DNA of 64,000 bases, taken from Candidatus Levybacteria bacterium RIFCSPHIGHO2_01_FULL_41_15 (GTDB lineage Bacteria > Patescibacteriota > Microgenomatia > Levybacterales > UBA12049). Every line of letters begins with the position of its first letter. The first letter of the stretch is position 1. Below are positions 5,761 through 58,041 of this stretch, one piece after another. Location: contig MFNV01000002.1 of assembly GCA_001782165.1 (NCBI GenBank), forward strand, positions 15,747 through 79,746, in the 5' to 3' direction. Below the pieces are notes generated by a model. It was not told the origin of the DNA and made no database searches. It saw nothing but the letters and a program-made list of their open reading frames with translations. The translations under genes and the position numbers were made by a program.

Positions 5761-6549
5761 ATGAGGAGAAAAAAGAATTCATCCCACAGAACTCTTCCTG
5801 CAATTATATTTTTTGCCCTAATAATAGGGGCAATTATTTTATCCTTTGTTTTTAAGGCTTTTTTAGTAATCAAAGACAGTAGGTTTGAAAGAGGAAGCAG
5901 ATTTACGGTTTTTATAACGGACCTGAAACAGGGAGAATTAATTTCATTTGTAAGAGAGAATCATTCTGTCTCAATTCTTAAAGTAAAAGGCGTGACAGGA
6001 AACCCTTACAGATATTTTGAGATTCCCATAGACGCAGGTATCCAAGTAAAGAATCTTGATTTGAATAAAACCGTATCCGAAATAACCTCTGACATCATTT
6101 TTAAAAAAACCACGAAAAAAAGTCTAAATCTTGTAGATCTTTTAAAAATGTTCTTATTTTCAAAAACCGTAAGTCCCCAAAATATCCTTGTCAGGGAAAT
6201 TTCCCCCAAGATAGACAAGTCATCACTTGAGAAAATTTTAAATCTTCTTTTCCAAGATTCTGAAATTACCTCGGAAAGGCCCACGATAGAAGTTGTAAAT
6301 GCGACACAGGAACAGGGAGTGGGGGAAAGACATGCCCGTCTTGTGACAAATATGGGCGGAAATGTTGTCCTTGTTTCAACAGGAGAAAGATCAAAAGAAT
6401 CAGGTATTTATTACGAAGGTAAAAAAAATTATACTATAGAAAAGCTTTCGGATGTGCTAAAATTTACTTTGAGAAAGAAGAAGGTCAGTAAAATTGCTGA
6501 CATAACTTTAGTAATAGGCGAGGATTACAAAATAAGTTCTCCTTATTAA
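5761..6549 (+). CDS. membrane-anchored protein with LytR_C-like C-terminal domain
   Basis: N-terminal TM anchor; C-terminal IEVVNATQEQGVGERHARLVTNMGGNVV resembles the LytR C-terminal domain. Confidence 0.45.
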   Translation: MRRKKNSSHRTLPAIIFFALIIGAIILSFVFKAFLVIKDSRFERGSRFTVFITDLKQGELISFVRENHSVSILKVKGVTGNPYRYFEIPIDAGIQVKNLDLNKTVSEITSDIIFKKTTKKSLNLVDLLKMFLFSKTVSPQNILVREISPKIDKSSLEKILNLLFQDSEITSERPTIEVVNATQEQGVGERHARLVTNMGGNVVLVSTGERSKESGIYYEGKKNYTIEKLSDVLKFTLRKKKVSKIADITLVIGEDYKISSPY

Positions 6550-7446: not shown

Positions 7447-7480
7447 TAGCTACTAGCAACTAGTGACTAGTAACTAGTTT
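7447..7480. repeat. array of four ACTAG units at 7-nt spacing (actagca actagtg actagta actagtt) with embedded ACTAGT/AACTAGTT palindromes, immediately upstream of yebC
   Basis: Seen directly; related ACTAGT-centred palindromes occur at 10894, 46112 and 51985. Confidence 0.6.
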
Positions 7481-8203
7481 ATGAGCGGACATTCTAAATG
7501 GTCTCAGATTAAAAGACAGAAAGAAAAAACCGATATAAAAAGAGGACTTACTTTTACCAAACTTGCTAATGCAATTACAATTGCAGTGAGGCAGGGTGGG
7601 GAAATAACGGATCCTTCTCAAAACTTCAGACTCAGACTTGCTATTGATATGGCAAGAGCCTCAAATATGCCAAAAGTGAATATTGATAGGGCAATCCAGA
7701 GGGGAGTTAAAAAGGGGGAAGGGGACATACAGGAAGTTGTCTATGAGGGTTTTGCTCCGGGAGGGGTTTTGTTAATAATAGAGGCTGCGACAGATAATCC
7801 CCAAAGGACAATCTCGGAAATAAAAAGTATTTTTAATAAAGCTGGTGCAAGCTTCGGCCAGCCAGGATCTGTTTCTTATCAATTTGCGCAAATGGGACAG
7901 ATAGTAATTAATAAAAATGGAAAATCGTTTGAGGAGATTTTTGAAATGGCCTTAGATCTTGGAGCAGAGGATATAGGGGAGACAGAGAAAAAAGTTATTG
8001 TTTATACAAAAGTTGAGGATTTATCAAGAGTAAGGGATAATCTCTTGGAAAAAAAATTAAACGTAGAAGATGCGCGTCTCATAAGAAAGCCTAATGTTCA
8101 AGTTGAGGTTGGAGGAGAACAATTAGGTAAGATAAAAAATTTCCTAGAAACAATAAATAGCTTAGATGATGTACAAAAAGTTTATTCTAATTTAAAACAA
8201 TAG
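7481..8203 (+). CDS. yebC: YebC/PmpR-family DNA-binding regulator
   Basis: N-terminus MSGHSKWSQIKRQKEKTD and overall 240-aa architecture are characteristic. Confidence 0.9.
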   Translation: MSGHSKWSQIKRQKEKTDIKRGLTFTKLANAITIAVRQGGEITDPSQNFRLRLAIDMARASNMPKVNIDRAIQRGVKKGEGDIQEVVYEGFAPGGVLLIIEAATDNPQRTISEIKSIFNKAGASFGQPGSVSYQFAQMGQIVINKNGKSFEEIFEMALDLGAEDIGETEKKVIVYTKVEDLSRVRDNLLEKKLNVEDARLIRKPNVQVEVGGEQLGKIKNFLETINSLDDVQKVYSNLKQ

Positions 8204-46156: not shown

Positions 46157-48511
46157 ATGGTTGATTACGCAAGGAGGAGCCGGCGGAGAAGATTTGCAAA
46201 TACAAACTCTAAGGTTCTTCTTTATAGTAAGCTTTCAAGATATTCCCTCTTCGGATTAATTGGTTTCGTAATTCTTATGGTGGTTCTTTTTCTTTGGTAT
46301 GGAAGAGCTCTTCCTGCTCCTGGAAAACTAATAGAAGCCCCCCTTGGTCAGTCTACAAGAATATATGACAGGAAAGGGATTCTTTTATATTCTGTTTACC
46401 AAACCAGAAATAGAACCTATGTAAAGCTCTCCGATATCCCAAAAACAGTACAGGAGGCAACAATTGCAATAGAAGATAAAGATTTTTACAGAAATCAAGG
46501 GTTTTCAGTGATTGGGTATCTTCGGGCAATAAGAAATATACTGCTTCTTAAGGGTCTTTCAGGCGGGTCTACAATTACTCAGCAGCTTGTTAAAAATGTC
46601 CTTTTATCTTCTGAACGAACGATACCCCGAAAGATAAAAGAGCTTATGCTTGCAATTCAAGTTGACCAAAAATATTCAAAAGATCAGATTCTTGAAATGT
46701 ATCTAAACGACGTTTCGTATGGCGGAGCCAATATCGGAGTTGAAGCTGCAGCCCAAAGTTATTTTGGCAAAAAGGTAAAGGATCTTGATCTTTCGGAAAG
46801 TGCTTTTCTTGCCGGTCTTCCCCAGGCACCGAGCGTCTATTCTCCTTATGGTGGCAGTGGAAAAAAATTCTATATAAAAAGAACAGAAGATGTCTTAACG
46901 CAAATGGTTTCTGAGAAATATATAACCAGAAAAGAAAAAGAGAAAGCCTTGAGCGAAATTGAAAAGAAGACATTTTCTTCAAAAGATTTGTCAATAAAGG
47001 CTCCCCATTTCGTTATTTTCGTAAAACAGCTTCTTGCAAAACAATTCGGTGAGCAGGCGGTTGAACAAGGCGGTCTCCAGGTTACAACATCGCTTGATTA
47101 TGAAATTCAGAAAGAAGCGGAAAAAATTATCAAAGAAGAACTTGAGAAATTAAAGGGCTATAATGTGGGAAATGGATCAGCAGTTGTTATGGATCCTGGG
47201 ACGGGTGAGATCTTGGCAATGGTAGGAAGCAAGGATTATTTTGATACCGAAAACGACGGAAACTTTAACACCGCTCTTGCAAACAGACAGCCGGGGTCTT
47301 CTCTTAAGCCAATTATTTACGCAACTGCTTTTGAGAAAGGATACACCGCCTCGTCTATGATAATGGATGTTGAAACGGATTTCCCCACAGGCGAGGAAGC
47401 TCATCCTATATATACGCCTGTAAATTATGACGGAAAATTTCATGGCCCCATGCAGATAAGATTTACATTGGGAAATTCTATAAATATTCCTGCTGTTAAA
47501 ACACTGGCAAGGATCGGAGTAAAAGATGTGATGGAAAGAGCATATTCTATGGGTATTGAAAACTGGAAGCCTACATCAGAAAACCTCGCAAGCGTAGGAC
47601 TCTCTCTTGTTTTAGGAGGGAGAGAAACAAGTCTTTTAAACGAAGTGATTGCCTATTCTACTTTTGCAAATCAAGGTGTAAAGCAAGATCCGATTGCAAT
47701 TTTAAAGGTTACAGATCTTAAAGGAAATAAATTATTTGAAAATAAAAAAAGATCTGGAGAAAAAGTTCTATCGCCCGAAATTGCATTTATCTTATCCCAT
47801 ATTTTACTTGATAATAATGCAAGGACCTTGGCTTTCGGTCCGAATTCATATCTAGTTATCCCCGGAAAAACAGTTTCTGTTAAAACAGGAACCACTGATG
47901 AAAAACGTGATAACTGGACAGTGGGTTTCACCCCATCTTTTGTTGTAGGTGTATGGGTTGGGAATAATGATAACAGTCCCATGAATCCGGCTATAGCATC
48001 GGGTGCAACAGGAGCCTCACCTGTTTGGAACAGGATTATGAGATACGTGCTTCGAGAAAAGGCTGATGAGCCGCCGAGAAAGCCGGATAATGTTATAGCG
48101 CTTCAGATAGATGCTCTGGGCGGCGGTCTTCCTGTTGACGGTCAGGGCACTCGTTCTGAATATTTTGTAAAGGGGACAGAGCCTACAGGTCCGGGCAGTA
48201 TTTATCAAAAGGTAAAACTTTCAAAACATGAGTCTTCGAAACTTGCAAGTAAGTGGGAAGTAGATAATCGGGATTACGATACCAAAGATTATATTATTTT
48301 CCATGAGGAGGATCCTGTTTCAACTGATGGGAAGAACAGATGGCAAGAAGGGATAAATGATTGGCTTTCTAGTCAATACCCAGGAGATGAAAAATACCAT
48401 CCTCCGACCGAAACCTCAGATTATCAGGGATCTTCAGACACAGATTCTAAAAAAGAAGAAAACCTAACTCCGACACCATCTCCGACCCTAACACCGATAC
48501 CTAGTCCTTAG
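46157..48511 (+). CDS. class A penicillin-binding protein (PBP1A-type transglycosylase/transpeptidase)
   Basis: GT51 motifs (IAIEDKDFYRNQGF, STITQQLVKN), transpeptidase SxxK/SxN/KTG, Pro/Thr-rich C-terminus. Confidence 0.9.
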   Translation: MVDYARRSRRRRFANTNSKVLLYSKLSRYSLFGLIGFVILMVVLFLWYGRALPAPGKLIEAPLGQSTRIYDRKGILLYSVYQTRNRTYVKLSDIPKTVQEATIAIEDKDFYRNQGFSVIGYLRAIRNILLLKGLSGGSTITQQLVKNVLLSSERTIPRKIKELMLAIQVDQKYSKDQILEMYLNDVSYGGANIGVEAAAQSYFGKKVKDLDLSESAFLAGLPQAPSVYSPYGGSGKKFYIKRTEDVLTQMVSEKYITRKEKEKALSEIEKKTFSSKDLSIKAPHFVIFVKQLLAKQFGEQAVEQGGLQVTTSLDYEIQKEAEKIIKEELEKLKGYNVGNGSAVVMDPGTGEILAMVGSKDYFDTENDGNFNTALANRQPGSSLKPIIYATAFEKGYTASSMIMDVETDFPTGEEAHPIYTPVNYDGKFHGPMQIRFTLGNSINIPAVKTLARIGVKDVMERAYSMGIENWKPTSENLASVGLSLVLGGRETSLLNEVIAYSTFANQGVKQDPIAILKVTDLKGNKLFENKKRSGEKVLSPEIAFILSHILLDNNARTLAFGPNSYLVIPGKTVSVKTGTTDEKRDNWTVGFTPSFVVGVWVGNNDNSPMNPAIASGATGASPVWNRIMRYVLREKADEPPRKPDNVIALQIDALGGGLPVDGQGTRSEYFVKGTEPTGPGSIYQKVKLSKHESSKLASKWEVDNRDYDTKDYIIFHEEDPVSTDGKNRWQEGINDWLSSQYPGDEKYHPPTETSDYQGSSDTDSKKEENLTPTPSPTLTPIPSP

Positions 48512-50384
48512 GTTTTATTTTGAGCTTAGTCTTGAGGCGGACAAGAATCCTTTCTCTTATCTTCTCTACTTCCCCGGATGTTAAATTTCTTCGTGGATTT
48601 TGATAAACAATATGAAAGGTTCTAATATTTTGGAATTTTTCAAGAAGACTTACTTCTCTTATCAAAGGACTTTGATCTTTTATCTCTCTTATAATATCTC
48701 CAGTTTTAATTTTATCAGCCATCATTAGTGCTAGGTCTTCTTTGATTGGAGGATACTTGGGGATAGGCTTGAAGGTTTTATTAAGATTTATTTTTTCAGA
48801 AAACTCATCGTAATTTAATTCAAAAAATATTCCTTCTTCAATTGCTTCTACGTACTGCGATGGATCTTCTTTGATTCCCAGCTCTTCAAATAATCTCTCA
48901 ATCACCCCTTTTACTTTCACAAAATTCATTTTTGTTGAAATTCCCGAGAGAAAATATGATTCTTCTTTTTTATCTAAGTTAGCTCCTCTATACACCTTAC
49001 CCAATTCAAATAAATTTATATCCTCAAAATTGGGTTTATTAAGAGCTACGGCTTTTTTGAGATTGATCATAAGAGTTGGCCTTAAGTACTCAAATTCTCT
49101 ACTTACGGGATTGTCAACTCGCAAAGTTTTGTCCGGATCCATTTCGTTATCGGTTAAATCTTTTTCAGAAATCAGACTGTACGTATAGATTTCTGAAAAA
49201 CCGGCCTCTTTAAATATATTTTTAACTTTTTCTTCTAATCTATAATCTCTATAATAAGGCGGAGGTTTTACGGGAGTCTGTCCGGATGGTATGGTTTTTG
49301 GGAAATTGTTGTATCCATAGATTCTCGCAACTTCTTCTATAAGATCTTCTTCTGCCTTAAGGTCATTTCTATATGTAGGTATTTCTGTTCTTATTGTACC
49401 TTTTGAGATTTTTTCGGGCGAAAGATTTAAGTTTTCTAAAATCTTTAAGATTTTGCTTTCCGCAATAGAAATCCCAAGAACATTTTTAAGTTTTTCTAAA
49501 CTTAAATCAAGTCTCCATGGATTAAATTCTTCTTTTTTAATATCGTAAATGTTACTTGCTATTTTTCCTCCTGCAATTTCAAGCACAAGATTGACGCATC
49601 TTTGCAGGGCATTCAGTGTCCCGCCCGCATTTACTCCTCTTTCGAATATGGAGGAAGCTTCGGAGCGAAGACCCAAAGACAAGGAAGCTCTTCTTATCAG
49701 CGAAGGAACTTCAACAGGGACTCTTATAAAAATAGTTTTAGTTTTTTCATAAATTCCCGTATTCTCTCCTCCTTTTATGCCGCATAGATCAATAATTTTT
49801 TCATCATCAGAAATTACCACAGCATTTTTTGGCAAATGGTATGAAATTCCGTCCACGCTTGTAAATCTTTCCTCTCCTTTTGTCTGATGCACCCTCATTG
49901 CCGCGCCTTTAATTTTGTTGTAGTCAAATGCATGAATAGGATTTCCAAGCTCAAGCATTACATAATTTGTAATATCAACTATATTGCTTATGGGACGTTG
50001 TCCGATTTTAATTAATCTTTCCGAAAGCCATTTCGGAGATTCTTTTACAGTTATGCCGTCTATTATTATTCCGGTAAATCTTGGATTTATTTTGGGATCA
50101 GTTTGTATTTTAAGAGGCAAAATTTTCTTGAGACTTAAGTTTATATTTACGCCCTTGAAGTGTTTAATGCTCTTGCCTTCAATTGCCGCAATCTCTTGAG
50201 CGATCCCAAGTATAGAAAGAAGATCAGGGCGATTCGGTGTTATTTCAAATTCAAAAATAATATCATCTTTATCTTTTATTATCTTTTCAGTACTTAATCC
50301 TACTTCAGTAAGACGATCTCCCAGTTCTCTTGGAGAAAGTTTCGTATCAACATATTCCTTGAGCCAAGATAAAGGCGCCAGCAT
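48501..50384 (-). CDS. pheT: phenylalanyl-tRNA synthetase beta subunit (short form lacking the N-terminal OB tRNA-binding insert)
   Basis: MLAPLSWLKEYVD N-terminus, B3/B4 and B5 domains; 627 aa vs ~790 aa typical. Confidence 0.85.
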   Translation of the reverse strand: MLAPLSWLKEYVDTKLSPRELGDRLTEVGLSTEKIIKDKDDIIFEFEITPNRPDLLSILGIAQEIAAIEGKSIKHFKGVNINLSLKKILPLKIQTDPKINPRFTGIIIDGITVKESPKWLSERLIKIGQRPISNIVDITNYVMLELGNPIHAFDYNKIKGAAMRVHQTKGEERFTSVDGISYHLPKNAVVISDDEKIIDLCGIKGGENTGIYEKTKTIFIRVPVEVPSLIRRASLSLGLRSEASSIFERGVNAGGTLNALQRCVNLVLEIAGGKIASNIYDIKKEEFNPWRLDLSLEKLKNVLGISIAESKILKILENLNLSPEKISKGTIRTEIPTYRNDLKAEEDLIEEVARIYGYNNFPKTIPSGQTPVKPPPYYRDYRLEEKVKNIFKEAGFSEIYTYSLISEKDLTDNEMDPDKTLRVDNPVSREFEYLRPTLMINLKKAVALNKPNFEDINLFELGKVYRGANLDKKEESYFLSGISTKMNFVKVKGVIERLFEELGIKEDPSQYVEAIEEGIFFELNYDEFSEKINLNKTFKPIPKYPPIKEDLALMMADKIKTGDIIREIKDQSPLIREVSLLEKFQNIRTFHIVYQNPRRNLTSGEVEKIRERILVRLKTKLKIKPKD

Positions 50385-50428: not shown

Positions 50429-51487
50429 TTAGAATTGTTCAAGAATTCGTAGGTCTGGATTTGTCAAGAGTCTCAAATCGTTCATTTGATAGCGCAAAGT
50501 TGCGAGTCTTGATAATCCTATCGCAAAGGCAAAACCTGATACTTCTTTTGGATTATATTTAACAGCCTTTAGAACATTCGGGTGTATCATTCCTGCAGGC
50601 ATTATTTCGCTCCATCCTGACATTTTACAGAAACCGCACCCCTGCCCGTTCGGCAGGCGAGCTTTTCCTTGGCAAACCGTACATTGGACATAGGTATCAA
50701 CTCCCGGCTCGACAAAAGGAAAGTTGGTAGTCGCAAATTTTATTTTTATATTTTCTCCCATGAGTTTTTTTAAAACATAATCAATTGTTCCAAAAAGGTC
50801 TGTCAATTTTACATTTGTATCGACTAGAAACCCTTCGCAATGCCAGAATTCAAATCCGTGAGATGCATCTACTTGCTCATATCTAAAATTTTTTCCGGGG
50901 ACGATTACTCTTACCGGAGGTTTAGCTTTTTCCATTACTCGAGCTTGCATTGCTGATGTTTGAGTGCGTAAAATTATTTCTCCAGGTTCAACTTTACTGT
51001 TTCTTGTATCAAGATAGAAAGTCTGTTGAGTATCCCTAGCAGGATGATCTTTTGGAATGTTTAACGCCTCAAAATTATAATAGTCTGTTTCTATCTCAGG
51101 TCCGTCTGCAGCTTGAAATCCAAGACTTTTAAACACATCAACTACATCATATAGAACTTGGCTTAGGGGGTGAAGGTGACCTATATTTGGTTTTATTCCT
51201 GGTTCCGTTCTATCTATTTCCTCCCTGATTTTTTTGGTTTTTGTTTCTCTAAGTCTGTATTCCTGGGAAGAGATTGCATCTTCAATTGATTTTTTGACTT
51301 CATTTGCAAGTCTTCCTATATCAGGCCTTTTCTCCAAAGTAAGTTTAGGGATTTCCTTTATTGCCAAAGTTAATCTACCTCCCCTTCCAATGAACCGAAT
51401 TTTAAGTTCCTCTAATTCTTTTTGATCTTTTGTCTCAAGAATAAGAGAAACAGCCGAGTTTTTAATTTGAATAAGTTCCTCCTCCAT
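50429..51487 (-). CDS. pheS: phenylalanyl-tRNA synthetase alpha subunit
   Basis: Class II motifs; FPFVEPGVD. Confidence 0.9.
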   Translation of the reverse strand: MEEELIQIKNSAVSLILETKDQKELEELKIRFIGRGGRLTLAIKEIPKLTLEKRPDIGRLANEVKKSIEDAISSQEYRLRETKTKKIREEIDRTEPGIKPNIGHLHPLSQVLYDVVDVFKSLGFQAADGPEIETDYYNFEALNIPKDHPARDTQQTFYLDTRNSKVEPGEIILRTQTSAMQARVMEKAKPPVRVIVPGKNFRYEQVDASHGFEFWHCEGFLVDTNVKLTDLFGTIDYVLKKLMGENIKIKFATTNFPFVEPGVDTYVQCTVCQGKARLPNGQGCGFCKMSGWSEIMPAGMIHPNVLKAVKYNPKEVSGFAFAIGLSRLATLRYQMNDLRLLTNPDLRILEQF

Positions 51488-51523
51488 ATTTATAAAATAT
51501 CACAATCTGCCATTTTTAAAAAC

Positions 51524-51556
51524 AATAAAAAACTCCCTTTGTCATCCTTTTGGGAG
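51524..51556 (-). terminator. Rho-independent terminator-like hairpin (CUCCC-N14-GGGAG) followed by UUUUUU, inside the rplT-pheS leader
   Basis: Seen directly on the minus-strand transcript; immediately preceded by a second strong hairpin (51557-51591, GACCGGGGAGC...GCUCCCCGGUC). Confidence 0.55.
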
Positions 51557-51589
51557 ACGGGGAGCGTCACTTAAAATCTTGCTCCCCGG

Positions 51590-51631
51590 TCAGGAGTTAA
51601 AAAAGAATCTGAAAGAAAAAATTTTATACAT
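51590..51631 (-). CDS. putative Phe-rich attenuator leader peptide MYKIFSFRFFFNS
   Basis: 13-codon ORF (too short for the ORF track); ATG overlaps the rplT stop codon, 5 of 13 codons are Phe, and the UGA stop lies in the 5' arm of the first leader hairpin; resembles E. coli pheM (recalled as [14 protein letters not shown]). Confidence 0.5.
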   Translation of the reverse strand: MYKIFSFRFFFNS

Positions 51632-51974
51632 TTTTAACCGATTCAACTACTTTTTTAAAAACCTCAGGATCATTTACGATAAGGTCGCTTAATATTTTTC
51701 TATCAAGCTCGATGTTTGTTTTTTTAAGTTTACTGATAAACTTGCTATAAGGAAGGCCTTCTTTTTTTACAGCCTCGCCTATTCTGGTTATCCATAAGGA
51801 TCTAAAGTCTCTCTTCCTAAGCTTTCTTCCATGAAAGGCATATGCTCCGGCATGAAGCTCTGCTTCCTTGGCAACTTTAATGAGTCTTGACTTAGTTCCC
51901 CTGTATCCTTTGGTTGCCTTAAGAATTTTTTTATGTTTTCTTCTTGAGATGATCCCTCTTTTTACTCTGGTCAT
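51624..51974 (-). CDS. rplT: 50S ribosomal protein L20
   Basis: MTRVKRGIISRRKHKKILKATKGYRG. Confidence 0.9.
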   Translation of the reverse strand: MTRVKRGIISRRKHKKILKATKGYRGTKSRLIKVAKEAELHAGAYAFHGRKLRKRDFRSLWITRIGEAVKKEGLPYSKFISKLKKTNIELDRKILSDLIVNDPEVFKKVVESVKNV

Positions 51975-51984
51975 AAACTAGTTG

Positions 51985-52009
51985 CCAGCTACTAATTACT
52001 AGTAGCTGG
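51985..52009. repeat. 10-bp perfect inverted repeat ccagctacta-attac-tagtagctgg in the rpmI-rplT spacer
   Basis: Seen directly; 11 nt upstream of the rplT ATG; no obvious SD. Confidence 0.6.
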
Positions 52010-52011
52010 TA

Positions 52012-52209: not shown

Positions 52210-52768
52210 GGCTTGGACTTAATCCTCCTTTTCTGTCTGGAGAAATTATAGCAATAAGCTGTCTTCCTTCGAAGTGTTTTTCTCTTTCAATCCTAGAAAC
52301 ATCCGAAAGAGAATTTATGGCTTTAGTAAGTACATTCTCCCCAAATTCAGGATGTGCTATTTGTCTTCCTGCGAATTTTACTACAAATTTAACTTTATTT
52401 CCATCCCCAATAAATTCCCTGGCTTTTTTAATAATAACCATCAGGTCATGCTCATTCATGAAGGGACCCAGTCTTAATTCTTTGGTTTCAGAGGTTTTTG
52501 ATTTTCTTTTTTCTTCTCTTTTTTTCTTTTCTTCCTGATAAAGAAATTTTTTAAAATCTATTATTTTTACAACAGGAGGATTTGCATTTGGAGCAATTTC
52601 TACAAGATCAAGACCTAACATTCTTGCTTTTGAAAGAGCTTCCAGCTTGGAGAGTATACCTATCTGTTTTCCTGAACTATCAATAACACGCAACGTGTTT
52701 GAGAAAATAAACTCATTTGTTCTGTAGCGTCTTTTATTTTCCTGTTTTCTTCTAAATCTTTTTATCAA
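52175..52768 (-). CDS. infC: translation initiation factor IF-3
   Basis: IF3 N- and C-domains (LGLDLVEIAPNANPPVVKIIDFKKF); true start may be a downstream non-AUG codon; C-terminal tail overlaps rpmI. Confidence 0.8.
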   Translation of the reverse strand: MIKRFRRKQENKRRYRTNEFIFSNTLRVIDSSGKQIGILSKLEALSKARMLGLDLVEIAPNANPPVVKIIDFKKFLYQEEKKKREEKRKSKTSETKELRLGPFMNEHDLMVIIKKAREFIGDGNKVKFVVKFAGRQIAHPEFGENVLTKAINSLSDVSRIEREKHFEGRQLIAIISPDRKGGLSPSHAKAENKKIGK

Positions 52769-53954
52769 TTTCTTCTTTTAGTTTTTTTAGGAACTCGGGT
52801 ATTTTTATAAGTCCTAGATCTTTTCCCTCCCTTGTTCTTACCGAGATAGATTCGCTTCCTATTTCTTTGTCTCCTATTATACCCATGTATGGAACTTTTT
52901 GCAAAGTAGCGTCCCGTATTTTGGATTGAAGAGTTTTTCCCCTGTTATCAAATTCTGCCCGTATCCCTGATTTTAAAAGTTTCTCATAAATTTTCCTAGC
53001 CTCTCTATTTTGCCGCTCTGTTATAGGAAGTATTGAAATCTGAACAGGAGAAAGCCAGAAAGGCAGATTCCCCTGTGTATGTTCAAGCAGTATCCCTATG
53101 AATCTTTCGATTGAACCTGTTATTCCACAGTGGATCATAACAGGCTGTTTCTTCTTTCCGTCTTTATCAACATAAAATATTTCCATTTTTTGCGGAATTT
53201 GAAAATCCAACTGAATGGTTGCAAGCTGCCAATCCCGGCCATGTGAGTCTTTAATATGAATATCAATCTTCGGTCCGTAAAAAGCTCCGTCTTTGTGTTT
53301 TATACCAAAATTTACCTTGGCATTTTTTAATGCAATTTCTAAATCCTTTTCAGCTTCCTTCCAAGTTTTGACATCCCCCATTGCCTTATCGGGTCTTGTT
53401 GCCAGGTAAAACCTAGGTTTAAATCCCAATGATTTGTAAACCTCAATTACAAGTCTTAAGAGCTTACTTATCTCTTTCCCTATTTGATCCGGACGCACAA
53501 ACAAGTGGGCGTCATCGATAGTAAATTGCCTTACTCTAAAAGCTCCTCCCAGAACTCCCGTTAATTCATTCCTGTGAAGAATGCCGTATTCTGAAAGTTT
53601 TATGGGAAGATCAATATAGCTTCTAATTTGCGAACCGTAGACAATGGCTGACTCTGGGCAGTTCATTGGCTTTAGAGAATAAGCCTGGTCTTCTATTTGA
53701 AAATTAAACATATTTTCTCTAAAGTGTTCCAAATGCCCAGATTTTTTAAAGATACCCGTTTTTATCAGAACGGGGGTTGATATCTCCAAATACCCTTCCA
53801 ATAAAGTAGTGTTTCTTAAAAATTCCTGTAATGTCCGATATATAATCCAGCCTTTTGGATGCCAAAATATTGCTCCGGGAGCATATTCGTGAAAAGAAAA
53901 CAGGTCCAGTTCCTGTCCGATTTGTCTATGATCTTTAATCCCTGAGGTTTTCAT
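52752..53954 (-). CDS. thrS: threonyl-tRNA synthetase, catalytic core plus anticodon-binding domain only
   Basis: DHRQIGQELDLF and class II motifs; 400 aa with no N-terminal TGS/editing domains. Confidence 0.85.
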   Translation of the reverse strand: MKTSGIKDHRQIGQELDLFSFHEYAPGAIFWHPKGWIIYRTLQEFLRNTTLLEGYLEISTPVLIKTGIFKKSGHLEHFRENMFNFQIEDQAYSLKPMNCPESAIVYGSQIRSYIDLPIKLSEYGILHRNELTGVLGGAFRVRQFTIDDAHLFVRPDQIGKEISKLLRLVIEVYKSLGFKPRFYLATRPDKAMGDVKTWKEAEKDLEIALKNAKVNFGIKHKDGAFYGPKIDIHIKDSHGRDWQLATIQLDFQIPQKMEIFYVDKDGKKKQPVMIHCGITGSIERFIGILLEHTQGNLPFWLSPVQISILPITERQNREARKIYEKLLKSGIRAEFDNRGKTLQSKIRDATLQKVPYMGIIGDKEIGSESISVRTREGKDLGLIKIPEFLKKLKEEIDKKI

Positions 53955-57521: not shown

Positions 57522-57593
57522 TGAGCGGCGGAGGGGAGTTGAACCCCCGACATCTTCCTTGGCAAGGAAGCATTCTACCGCTGAATTACCGCC
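57522..57593 (-). tRNA. tRNA-Gly(GCC)
   Basis: Acceptor GCGGCGG/CCGCCGC, anticodon stem CUUCC/GGAAG with loop UUGCCAA, T-arm GGGGG-UUCAACU-CCCCU, discriminator U. Confidence 0.85.
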
Positions 57594-57651
57594 GCACTTC
57601 GTCGCTTTGCTCCTCAGTGTAAACTTTCTAGCTTGCCCTGAGCGCAGGCAA

Positions 57652-57726
57652 AGGGTGCCGAAGCGGTGAATCGAACACCGATAACGTGTTCTTCAGACAC
57701 GCGCCTTGACCACGTTGGCAACTTCG
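57652..57726 (-). tRNA. tRNA-Phe(GAA)
   Basis: Acceptor GCCGAAG/CUUCGGC, anticodon stem CGUGU/ACACG with loop CUGAAGA, T-arm CGGUG-UUCGAUU-CACCG. Confidence 0.85.
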
Positions 57727-57730
57727 GCAA

Positions 57731-57803
57731 TGTGGGTACTGAGGGGCTCGAACCCCCGACATTTGCGATGTAAACGCAACGCTCTACCAACTGAGCTAAG
57801 TAC
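57731..57803 (-). tRNA. tRNA-Val(UAC)
   Basis: Acceptor GGGUACU/AGUACCC, D-arm GCUC-AGUUGGUA-GAGC, anticodon stem UUGCG/CGCAA with loop UUUACAU. Confidence 0.85.
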
Positions 57804-58041
57804 CCATAATTAATTTTTTTAACTTATCTCTCCCTTTACCAGTTTTTAAGAATAATTCTCTTTTTCGTGCTTCTAATCTAGTCCGATATTCTTCTTTGTA
57901 GATCAACTTGAAAGGTTTTGTTAAACTTGTATACTTACCATGTCCAGAATTATGTTCATGTAGCCGCCTTTCAATATTATTAGTTGATCCAGTATAAAGC
58001 CTATCATTTCTTAAGCTTTTTAATATGTAAACGTACCACAT
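57796..58041 (-). CDS. GIY-YIG nuclease-family protein (small, stand-alone URI domain)
   Basis: WYVYILKS...DRLYTGSTNNIERRLHEHNSG matches the GIY-YIG motifs; the ORF-track ORF extends to 58080, but the Met at MWYVYIL (58041) is preferred because upstream codons overlap a tRNA-like sequence; 3' end overlaps the tRNA-Val 5' end by ~8 nt. Confidence 0.65.
   Translation of the reverse strand: MWYVYILKSLRNDRLYTGSTNNIERRLHEHNSGHGKYTSLTKPFKLIYKEEYRTRLEARKRELFLKTGKGRDKLKKLIMGT

Follow-up and report, generated by a model that had tools for sequence, protein, structure and literature searches.

A conserved pheM-like leader element, predicted to act as a phenylalanine attenuator, between rplT and pheS in a Candidatus Levybacteria genome

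The 64,000 nt stretch of Candidatus Levybacteria DNA considered herein (from contig MFNV01000002.1, and referred to as the window) carries on its minus strand the genes thrS-infC-rpmI-rplT-pheS-pheT, an order that had been proposed in an initial annotation made from the sequence alone and that is borne out by NCBIfam profiles, with rpmI scoring 41 bits, under its 51-bit cut-off, yet matching over its full length. Between rplT, which encodes ribosomal protein L20, and pheS there is a 13-codon, phenylalanine-rich leader open reading frame (ORF), followed by a series of pairing regions and a uracil run. We conclude that this is a conserved leader-peptide attenuator of the pheM kind, in a distinctive layout and with a predicted function, within a lineage of the Candidate Phyla Radiation (CPR). 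The guess that the DNA is of CPR origin was correct, as the closest PheS proteins are those of Candidatus Levybacteria and Patescibacteria metagenome-assembled genomes; the identical locus is present on 17 contigs, Rifle aquifer metagenomes among them.

The leader (Table 1) encodes MYKIFSFRFFFNS and consists of the codons ATG TAT AAA ATT TTT TCT TTC AGA TTC TTT TTT AAC TCC TGA. Its start codon (51631-51629) is formed by AAU-G within the 3′ end of rplT, which reads AAA AAU GUA UAA (stop codon TAA at 51626-51624), and therefore overlaps the last codons of that gene; its own UGA stop lies at 51592-51590. Phenylalanine occupies codons 5, 7, 9, 10 and 11 (starting at 51619, 51613, 51607, 51604 and 51601), with FFF at 9-11. 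Direct reading of the sequence accordingly agrees with the earlier description of a Phe-rich ORF that opens at an ATG overlapping the rplT stop and holds five Phe codons, three of them consecutive. A short ORF with start and stop is thus present in the 5′ region of the regulated transcript (13 codons, with 11-26 in relatives), and 5 of its 13 codons are cognate to what lies downstream, namely pheS/pheT and, in certain relatives, genes for 3-deoxy-D-arabinoheptulosonate 7-phosphate (DAHP) synthase or prephenate dehydratase. No other ATG mini-ORF in the whole window has five Phe in eight codons with a GC-rich stretch and then a T run behind it, and a scan of the full window for further leader ORFs enriched in particular amino acids and linked to a terminator returned nothing comparable.

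Four pairing regions can be recognized at and beyond the end of the leader. Region 1 comprises codons 12 and 13 together with the U of the stop, whilst region 2 begins 2 nt past the stop, such that a terminating ribosome would cover it. Regions 2 and 3 are separated by a 15-nt loop and form 8 contiguous pairs, CGGGGAGC (51588-51581) with GCUCCCCG (51565-51558), plus 2 pairs beyond a bulged C. This corresponds to the first hairpin of the initial annotation, which does exist, although the 3′ arm quoted for it, GCUCCCCGGUC, contained one wrong base and actually reads GCUCCCCGUC. The reported CUCCC-N14-GGGAG-UUUUUU is also present, but its interpretation as a second hairpin is better replaced by that of the inner part of a compound 3:4 terminator; the CUCCC at 51556-51552, offered earlier as an alternative partner for GGGAG, lies inside a nested hairpin that occupies the same position in the nearest relatives (L007, L168 and L170; related loci are cited by L numbers). 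Likewise, a U run does precede pheS, at a distance of 39 nt from its ATG (51487) rather than about 35 nt.

Constrained, state-specific folding of the window RNA, as had been recommended, produces three states consistent with the classical 1:2 / 2:3 / 3:4 scheme. The untranslated RNA (51600..51524) adopts a three-way junction of -25.7 kcal/mol, in which an AACUCCU:GGGAGUU outer stem encloses the 2:3 helix and a small hairpin. Masking 13 nt, to represent a ribosome at the stop, gives a fold of -15.3 kcal/mol in which a GCUCCC:GGGAGU stem encloses the nested hairpin and is followed by U6 (51532-51527), which provides an intrinsic terminator between the leader and the regulated gene. With a ribosome stalled at the last Phe codon, and region 4 not yet made, the 2:3 pairing forms at -16.7 kcal/mol (z -2.6 versus shuffles) and sequesters 78% of region 3, making this 8 bp antiterminator exclusive with the terminator, save for a leftover CUCCC-N14-GGGAG hairpin that is weak on its own (-6.4 kcal/mol). 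The antiterminator pairing had not been obvious at first, and a departure from the four-region model had been suggested; with AACUCCU, GGGGAGC, GCUCCCC and GGGAG as regions 1 to 4, there is no need for a non-classical mechanism. The attenuator hairpin is the sole predicted terminator after rplT, and as such would double as the terminator of that gene. A simple promoter/terminator scanner (loop limit 8 nt; -35 box required) flagged nothing in the spacer, the terminator being missed because its loop exceeds 8 nt.

Table 1. Features of the rplT-pheS region and its flanking genes in the window
Feature	Position	Strand	Basis or remark
Leader ORF, MYKIFSFRFFFNS and stop, 13 codons	51590..51631	(-)	Read from sequence; aligns to family covariance model positions 1-43
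Region 1, AACUCCU (last two sense codons + U of stop)	51592..51598	(-)	Partner is region 2, or region 4 when the full-length RNA folds untranslated
Region 2, CGGGGAGC, antiterminator 5′ arm	51581..51588	(-)	Constrained folds; starts 2 nt past leader stop
Region 3, GCUCCCCG	51558..51565	(-)	Forms 8 bp with region 2; its GCUCCC can instead form the terminator outer stem with region 4
Nested inner terminator hairpin GUCUCC-CAAAA-GGA-U-GAC, then AAA	51541..51558	(-)	Fold of 51568..51524, -15.3 kcal/mol
Region 4, GGGAG (51537-51533) + U6 (51532-51527)	51527..51537	(-)	Sequence, folds, end of covariance-model match
Extended -10 promoter-like box TG-A-TATTTT	51494..51502	(-)	Ends 6 nt before pheS ATG; TGnTAnnnT conserved in relatives
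rplT (ribosomal protein L20, 116 aa)	51974..51624	(-)	NCBIfam TIGR01032, 146.6 bits, E 3.3e-43; ORF list
pheS (352 aa)	50429..51487, ATG at 51487	(-)	NCBIfam TIGR00468, 262.9 bits
pheT	50384..48501	(-)	NCBIfam TIGR00472, 467.8 bits

Comparison with other genomes covered 80 species-representative loci obtained via a PheS alignment, 80 metagenome loci (approximately 23 of them from Microgenomates) and three closer relatives. At least 27 related loci of Microgenomates have, right after rplT, a Phe-rich mini-ORF with the same four pairing regions and a U run; 25 of these loci emerged from an ORF scan, with more coming from a family model and from look-ups (L046, L096, L168, L170). Loss of the short ORF and hairpins in relatives had been named as the result that would speak against the proposal; the contrary was found, in that the ORF and pairing regions are kept in these loci and the helices covary, although the spacer is not kept in every close relative. 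The peptides include MQKPGKTFWFYFTFA in L007, the nearest species, and MQKQIFFSFYFTFA, MKALDFFFYFTFAS, MNTSRFFSFYFTSQTGR, MSNKFFFFTFTS, MKQTIFSFSITS and MITNRKFFIFFFFSQTGE elsewhere. A motif, F-x-F-Y-F-T-F/S-A, is repeated in many relatives, but the window peptide does not have it. The gap between rplT and pheS varies from 7 to >1000 nt among relatives, and where a small gene is inserted before pheS the leader element sits right after rplT. Indeed, the strongest mini-ORF matches in the intergenic regions intended as controls were this same element, located after rplT at long-gap loci, and the control set was cleaned of such elements before the background was counted.

Against that background, Phe accounts for 26% of the 398 codons in 25 leaders, versus 5.5% in 76 other intergenic mini-ORFs, an enrichment that is partly by construction because the leaders were selected on Phe content. 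A fairer statement is the empty background itself: none of the 76 other ATG mini-ORFs, drawn from intergenic regions between co-directional genes in the window and at related loci, holds four or more Phe codons. TTY triplets in the 25 leaders likewise fall predominantly in frame (104, versus 47 and 57 in the other two frames).

The alternative helices covary. In a plain MAFFT alignment of 21 relatives, unfitted to any structure, 87.6% of the cells of helix 2:3 are paired and 4 of its 7 pairs have changed on both sides, a degree of pairing that was reached by 0 of 500 shuffles and that compares with 49-65% in slid controls. The model-based alignment of 32 sequences gives 85.1% for the same helix (both-side changes in 4-5 of 7 pairs over the two alignments), 90.1%, with compensatory changes, for helix 1:2, and 93.6% for helix 3:4, where both sides have changed in 6 of 7 pairs. 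When arms were taken from the state folds (an automatic terminator finder was unusable, as it selects the 1:4 outer stem in short elements), duplexes between each locus' own regions 2 and 3 had a mean of -14.0 kcal/mol, whereas permuted partners gave -10.95 +/- 0.46 and a value as low as the former arose in 0 of 20000 permutations; folds of the antiterminator state across 24 loci had a mean z of -3.2. Conservation, covariation and mutual exclusion of helices together mark an attenuator, and not a plain terminator.

A family covariance model (R1), built from 21 relatives with the window excluded, has its top match in the window at 51527-51631 (-), full length, with 33.8 bits and an E-value of 0.0025 (next match 0.32), and recovers the window copy at 0.022 in a 566-kb search, these E-values being rough because calibration was shortened. 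The window element thus belongs to the post-rplT Phe leader family of Microgenomates, for which members outside the training set were also recovered (L046, L058, L096, L103, L108 and a second copy in L027). The model furthermore aligns the E. coli pheM attenuator over its full length at 36 bits. Conversely, the Rfam model RF01859 (Phe_leader), which scores 75 bits on E. coli pheM as a positive control, was applied to 11 relatives, where 7 of the 8 weak matches are to Phe_leader and lie full length on the predicted elements, at 26.7-40.1 bits versus a gathering score of 55 bits.

The element is not confined to pheS. In L031 it stands, at 1498-1605, upstream of a DAHP synthase gene, and L050 has two attenuators (564-682 and 1126-1232), the second being upstream of a gene for prephenate dehydratase with an ACT domain. 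As a separate observation made by eye, the sequence immediately before pheS in several other relatives looks like the end of a gene for prephenate dehydratase, chorismate mutase or DAHP synthase. L027 contains a second Phe leader element after pheT (5892-6016), with TGATATAAT, 6 nt and an ATG opening the peptide MSKKTINQFFFAAFLREVGSFRG, and a terminator of AACCUCCC..GGGGAGG-U7; its downstream gene falls outside the fetched locus. Between attenuator and pheS, L007, L008, L011, L029, L044, L045, L052, L082, L093, L101, L168 and L170 have small genes (60-137 aa) with a Shine-Dalgarno sequence in front; Pfam returned no match for the small ORFs at this position, and several of their sequences look unrelated. 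A further group (L055, L056, L059, L063, L079, L084, L096, L106 and L109) possesses a C-terminal tail on L20, ..EAGFSFT.PK and stop (..KKFTFA and stop in L096), with regions 2-3-4 and the U run immediately after the tail and without a leader ORF of its own. In these loci the Phe leader seems to have been fused to the C-terminus of L20, and for most of them the model matches are weak to moderate (25-45 bits).

The manner in which the leader is transcribed differs between family members. At least ten relatives (L007, L008, L011, L027, L045, L050, L054, L168 and L170 among them) have a leader with its own sigma-70 promoter, whose -35 sequence TTGACN derives from the L20 codons Val-Asp (GTT GAC) and is followed by 17 nt, a -10 box, 6-7 nt and the leader ATG; this last distance implies that the leader mRNA is leaderless in these relatives. 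The nearest species, L007, L168 and L170 (80-92% PheS identity), are all of this type, with an FxFYFTF-type leader, its promoter and a small extra ORF, and a search for closer relatives with a window-type leader found none among L007, L168, L170 and L171. The last of these, from the same Rifle sample, has an rplT-pheS gap of 21 nt without a leader, and a NUDIX hydrolase gene (2270-2713) between pheS and pheT. Leaders of the window type, which begin within 8 nt of the rplT stop and have no promoter of their own, are found in L009, L026, L058, L074 and L108, and are probably entered by termination-reinitiation from rplT, to judge from this arrangement.

A second transcription signal lies beyond the terminator. 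In 52 of 75 relatives an extended -10 motif, TGnTAnnnT, has its end 4-9 nt upstream of the pheS ATG (at 6 nt precisely in 35 of them), versus 1.15 expected from shuffles, and this holds whatever gene lies upstream; the PheS N-terminus, MEE.L, is kept in 32 homologues. It is probable, therefore, that a separate, leaderless pheS transcript begins beyond the terminator, and because of the position of this box the contribution of the attenuator is limited to read-through coming from the rplT operon. Most genes of the window, operon-internal ones included, lack a Shine-Dalgarno sequence in a survey for which the choice of start codons was crude, and hence neither the leader AUG nor the internal pheS AUG is unusual in lacking one, nor need the lack by itself hinder the use of the pheS AUG on read-through RNA. 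In the same survey several first genes had a TAnnnT box, in many cases TG-extended, at 5-8 nt upstream of the ATG, example starts being 46085(-), 46157(+), 37108(+), 55004(-), 62822(+) and 11663(-); leaderless transcripts may be common in this genome.

Given the observed anatomy, the family membership, the covariation of alternative helices and the association with Phe genes, the element is probably a ribosome-mediated attenuator that senses charged tRNA-Phe and at the same time provides the thrS-infC-rpmI-rplT unit with its intrinsic terminator. The initial proposal of a pheM-like Phe attenuator is in this respect supported, by at least 27 loci, three covarying helices and reciprocal model matches below threshold, with leader translation, ribosome stalling and Phe-dependent read-through being what the sequence would predict. 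Ribosomes finishing rplT would reinitiate at the overlapping AUG and translate the 13-codon leader. When Phe-tRNA is plentiful, a ribosome at the UGA would cover region 2 (CGGGGAGC), allowing the GCUCCC:GGGAGU terminator (-15 kcal/mol) to stop transcription at around 51527. When Phe-tRNA is scarce, stalling at codons 9-11 (UUC UUU UUU) would cover region 1 and leave region 2 free to pair with region 3 over 8 bp, so that only a weak hairpin of 5 bp with a 14-nt loop would precede the U tract and more read-through into pheS-pheT would result. In the absence of any translation, the three-way junction of 1:4 and 2:3 pairings would place a stem before the U tract and lead to termination. The attenuator would in this way add Phe-responsive read-through to a basal, probably leaderless, transcription of pheS.

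A number of observations weigh against this reading, and several of them would be accounted for if there were only an intrinsic terminator of the rplT operon here, the mini-ORF being a decayed remnant or T-rich by-product that no longer senses Phe. We consider this unlikely, yet it is the alternative that fares best. Among clear members of the family, the window copy has diverged most and scores lowest (33.8 bits versus 43-91 for most others), it gives no match to RF01859 at E<=10 in searches of 8 kb and 211 nt and so falls outside the gathering threshold of that family, and it has lost both the dedicated sigma-70 promoter and the FxFYFT motif that its nearest relatives possess. Its T runs yield Phe codons in all three frames, making frame evidence from the window by itself weak. 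The 1:2 helix is short (4-5 bp), and the antiterminated state still allows the 5-bp CUCCC:GGGAG hairpin adjoining the U tract, as a consequence of which switching may be leaky. The fold of the whole 153-nt spacer is of unremarkable stability (z -1.3), the state-specific folds alone being informative. With the promoter-like box for pheS situated downstream of the terminator, read-through may contribute little to pheS expression. Many close relatives are without any leader, having a plain terminator or nearly no rplT-pheS spacer at all, and the spacer is invariant across six contigs of the same population, offering no polymorphism on which selection within the species could be tested.

On the other hand, what is seen in the window speaks against decay: an intact ORF with its AUG at the rplT stop, FFF directly before region 1 and a stop in the 1:2 loop, as in relatives that look functional. 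Moreover, the 2:3 pairing is both strong and specific to the locus, as window region 2 pairs with its own region 3 at -15.5 kcal/mol versus -8.2 with the region 3 of other loci. The promoter-less layout, for its part, is common to the five loci named above, suggesting a maintained variant and not decay. A phenylalanine-sensing attenuator continues to be the favoured explanation.

It is considerably less plausible that this is a translation-coupled terminator sensing a general lag of the ribosome behind RNA polymerase on rplT, with the Phe codons incidental. Entry of the window leader from rplT would suit such a device, as would Woesebacteria-like relatives in which region 2 directly follows the rplT stop with no leader ORF and just 1-2 Phe codons in the L20 tail. 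Nevertheless, the roughly five-fold enrichment of Phe in leaders, clustered just upstream of region 1, the presence of the same element before DAHP synthase and prephenate dehydratase genes, and the matches to Phe_leader in both directions all speak against it. Even less probable is a functional hydrophobic micropeptide whose transcription is merely terminated by the hairpins. The recurrent F-x-F-Y-F-T-F/S-A motif would fit this, but it is missing from the window peptide, and among relatives length, N-terminus and C-terminus all vary. Frame is likewise fluid where the RNA is conserved, with the stop lying in the 1:2 loop, just after region 2 or approximately 25 nt later depending on the locus, and with the leaders of L057 and L103 differing by an indel; those codons that are conserved coincide with RNA region 1, and a terminating ribosome would mask region 2 wherever the stop lies. 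Finally, whilst pheS is under T-box control in many bacteria, and in E. coli and Bacillus L20 binds RNA to regulate the operon that encodes it, a T-box riboswitch or L20-binding leader is highly improbable here, as comparison of the spacer with Rfam (in searches of 8 kb and 211 nt at E<=10) gave no match to T-box, L20_leader or any other family, the element of ~105 nt is too short for a T-box, and L20 sites lie upstream of infC or rpmI rather than downstream of rplT.

The closest counterpart amongst described systems is E. coli pheM, for which the 14-residue peptide given in the initial annotation proved to be correct. Both elements occupy the slot between rplT and pheS in a thrS-infC-rpmI-rplT-pheST cluster, both have a leader of 13-14 codons with 5 Phe codons (MYKIFSFRFFFNS in the window), and both combine a U run with four pairing regions built on GGAGG/CCUCC cores, regions 2, 3 and 4 of E. 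coli being AGGAGGCU, AGCCUCC and GGAGGCU. They differ in that the rplT stop of E. coli is 122 nt from the pheM start, whereas the window leader AUG overlaps it. In E. coli a terminator and the pheM promoter are found in this gap, and pheS is transcribed through the attenuator; in the window, the attenuator terminator doubles as that of rplT, and a conserved extended -10 box for pheS is located downstream of it. The likeness between the Microgenomates element and pheM may reflect either homology or convergence.

E. coli pheL/pheA shares with the window a run of Phe codons in a short leader before a terminator, and also, through L050 and L031, a location before prephenate dehydratase and DAHP synthase genes, although the gene downstream in the window is pheS and not a biosynthetic one. 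Peptides of L050 and L031 such as MKNLTKINAFFFAFA are reminiscent of pheL. The classical trp, his, leu and thr attenuators, and those of Streptomyces trpS and leuS, have regulatory codons in a leader ORF and exclusive 1:2, 2:3 and 3:4 helices in common with the element described here, whilst they concern a different amino acid and different lineages. A T-box upstream of pheS, as in Firmicutes and others, exerts termination control over the same gene class in response to tRNA charging, but it binds tRNA directly, needs no leader translation and is far longer than the window element. The pheL leaders of the gamma subdivision are short, with runs of Phe codons (PMC3082878). Classical attenuators are also known upstream of aminoacyl-tRNA synthetase genes outside Proteobacteria, the cases noted being trpS and leuS in Streptomyces, next to pheST in gamma-proteobacteria (PMC1262725).

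A full-text search of the literature on CPR or Patescibacteria together with leader peptides, attenuation or pheS found nothing relevant. The comparative survey of attenuation by Lopatovskaya et al. in 2010 (cited in PMC4833913) predates the CPR genomes, and we know of no experimental study of CPR gene regulation. Leader-peptide attenuation needs a ribosome close behind RNA polymerase. The occurrence of a Phe attenuator, conserved and covarying, in Levybacteria and further Microgenomates thus constitutes sequence-level evidence for transcription-translation coupling, and for regulation by tRNA charging, in reduced and uncultivated CPR bacteria. The family is also unusual in its layouts, which appear to include leaderless leader mRNAs from a promoter with its -35 box inside rplT codons, leader entry by reinitiation from rplT, an apparent leader-L20 fusion and a second, leaderless pheS promoter downstream of the attenuator. 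At ~105 nt, the element is compact and could be tested in heterologous assays, and the family model could annotate similar sites across CPR genomes. A broader and more speculative view would combine two propositions. According to the first, L20 translation in Microgenomates is wired into the sensing of charged tRNA-Phe, by ribosomes passing from rplT into the leader in the window type and by a leader-L20 fusion in Woesebacteria-like lineages (..GFSFT..K and stop, then regions 2-3-4), so that the terminator of a ribosomal-protein operon serves as a Phe-gated valve into pheST over a constitutive leaderless pheS promoter; according to the second, common ancestry of the rplT-leader-pheST arrangement in CPR and Proteobacteria, and not convergence, lies behind the reciprocal pheM matches. 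Taken jointly, these are tentative and rather doubtful.

Some further features of the surrounding genes deserve mention. The product of thrS (52752-53954, minus strand) is only 400 aa in length and matches TIGR00418 at positions 171-564, with approximately 170 N-terminal model positions missing, and directly upstream of it is a 76-aa DUF5665 ORF. For pheT (627 aa), the TIGR00472 match begins at model position 157. The motif AACTAGTTTATG at the start of rplT and upstream recurs once in the window, at 7472-7483, which is not significant (2 matches versus 0.5 expected). A perfect 12-bp palindromic hairpin is situated between rpmI and rplT, at 51983-52011. Lastly, the window encodes ten tRNA genes in total, including tRNA-Phe(GAA), which forms part of a Gly(GCC)-Phe(GAA)-Val(UAC) cluster (57523-57805, minus strand) located ~6 kb from the attenuator.

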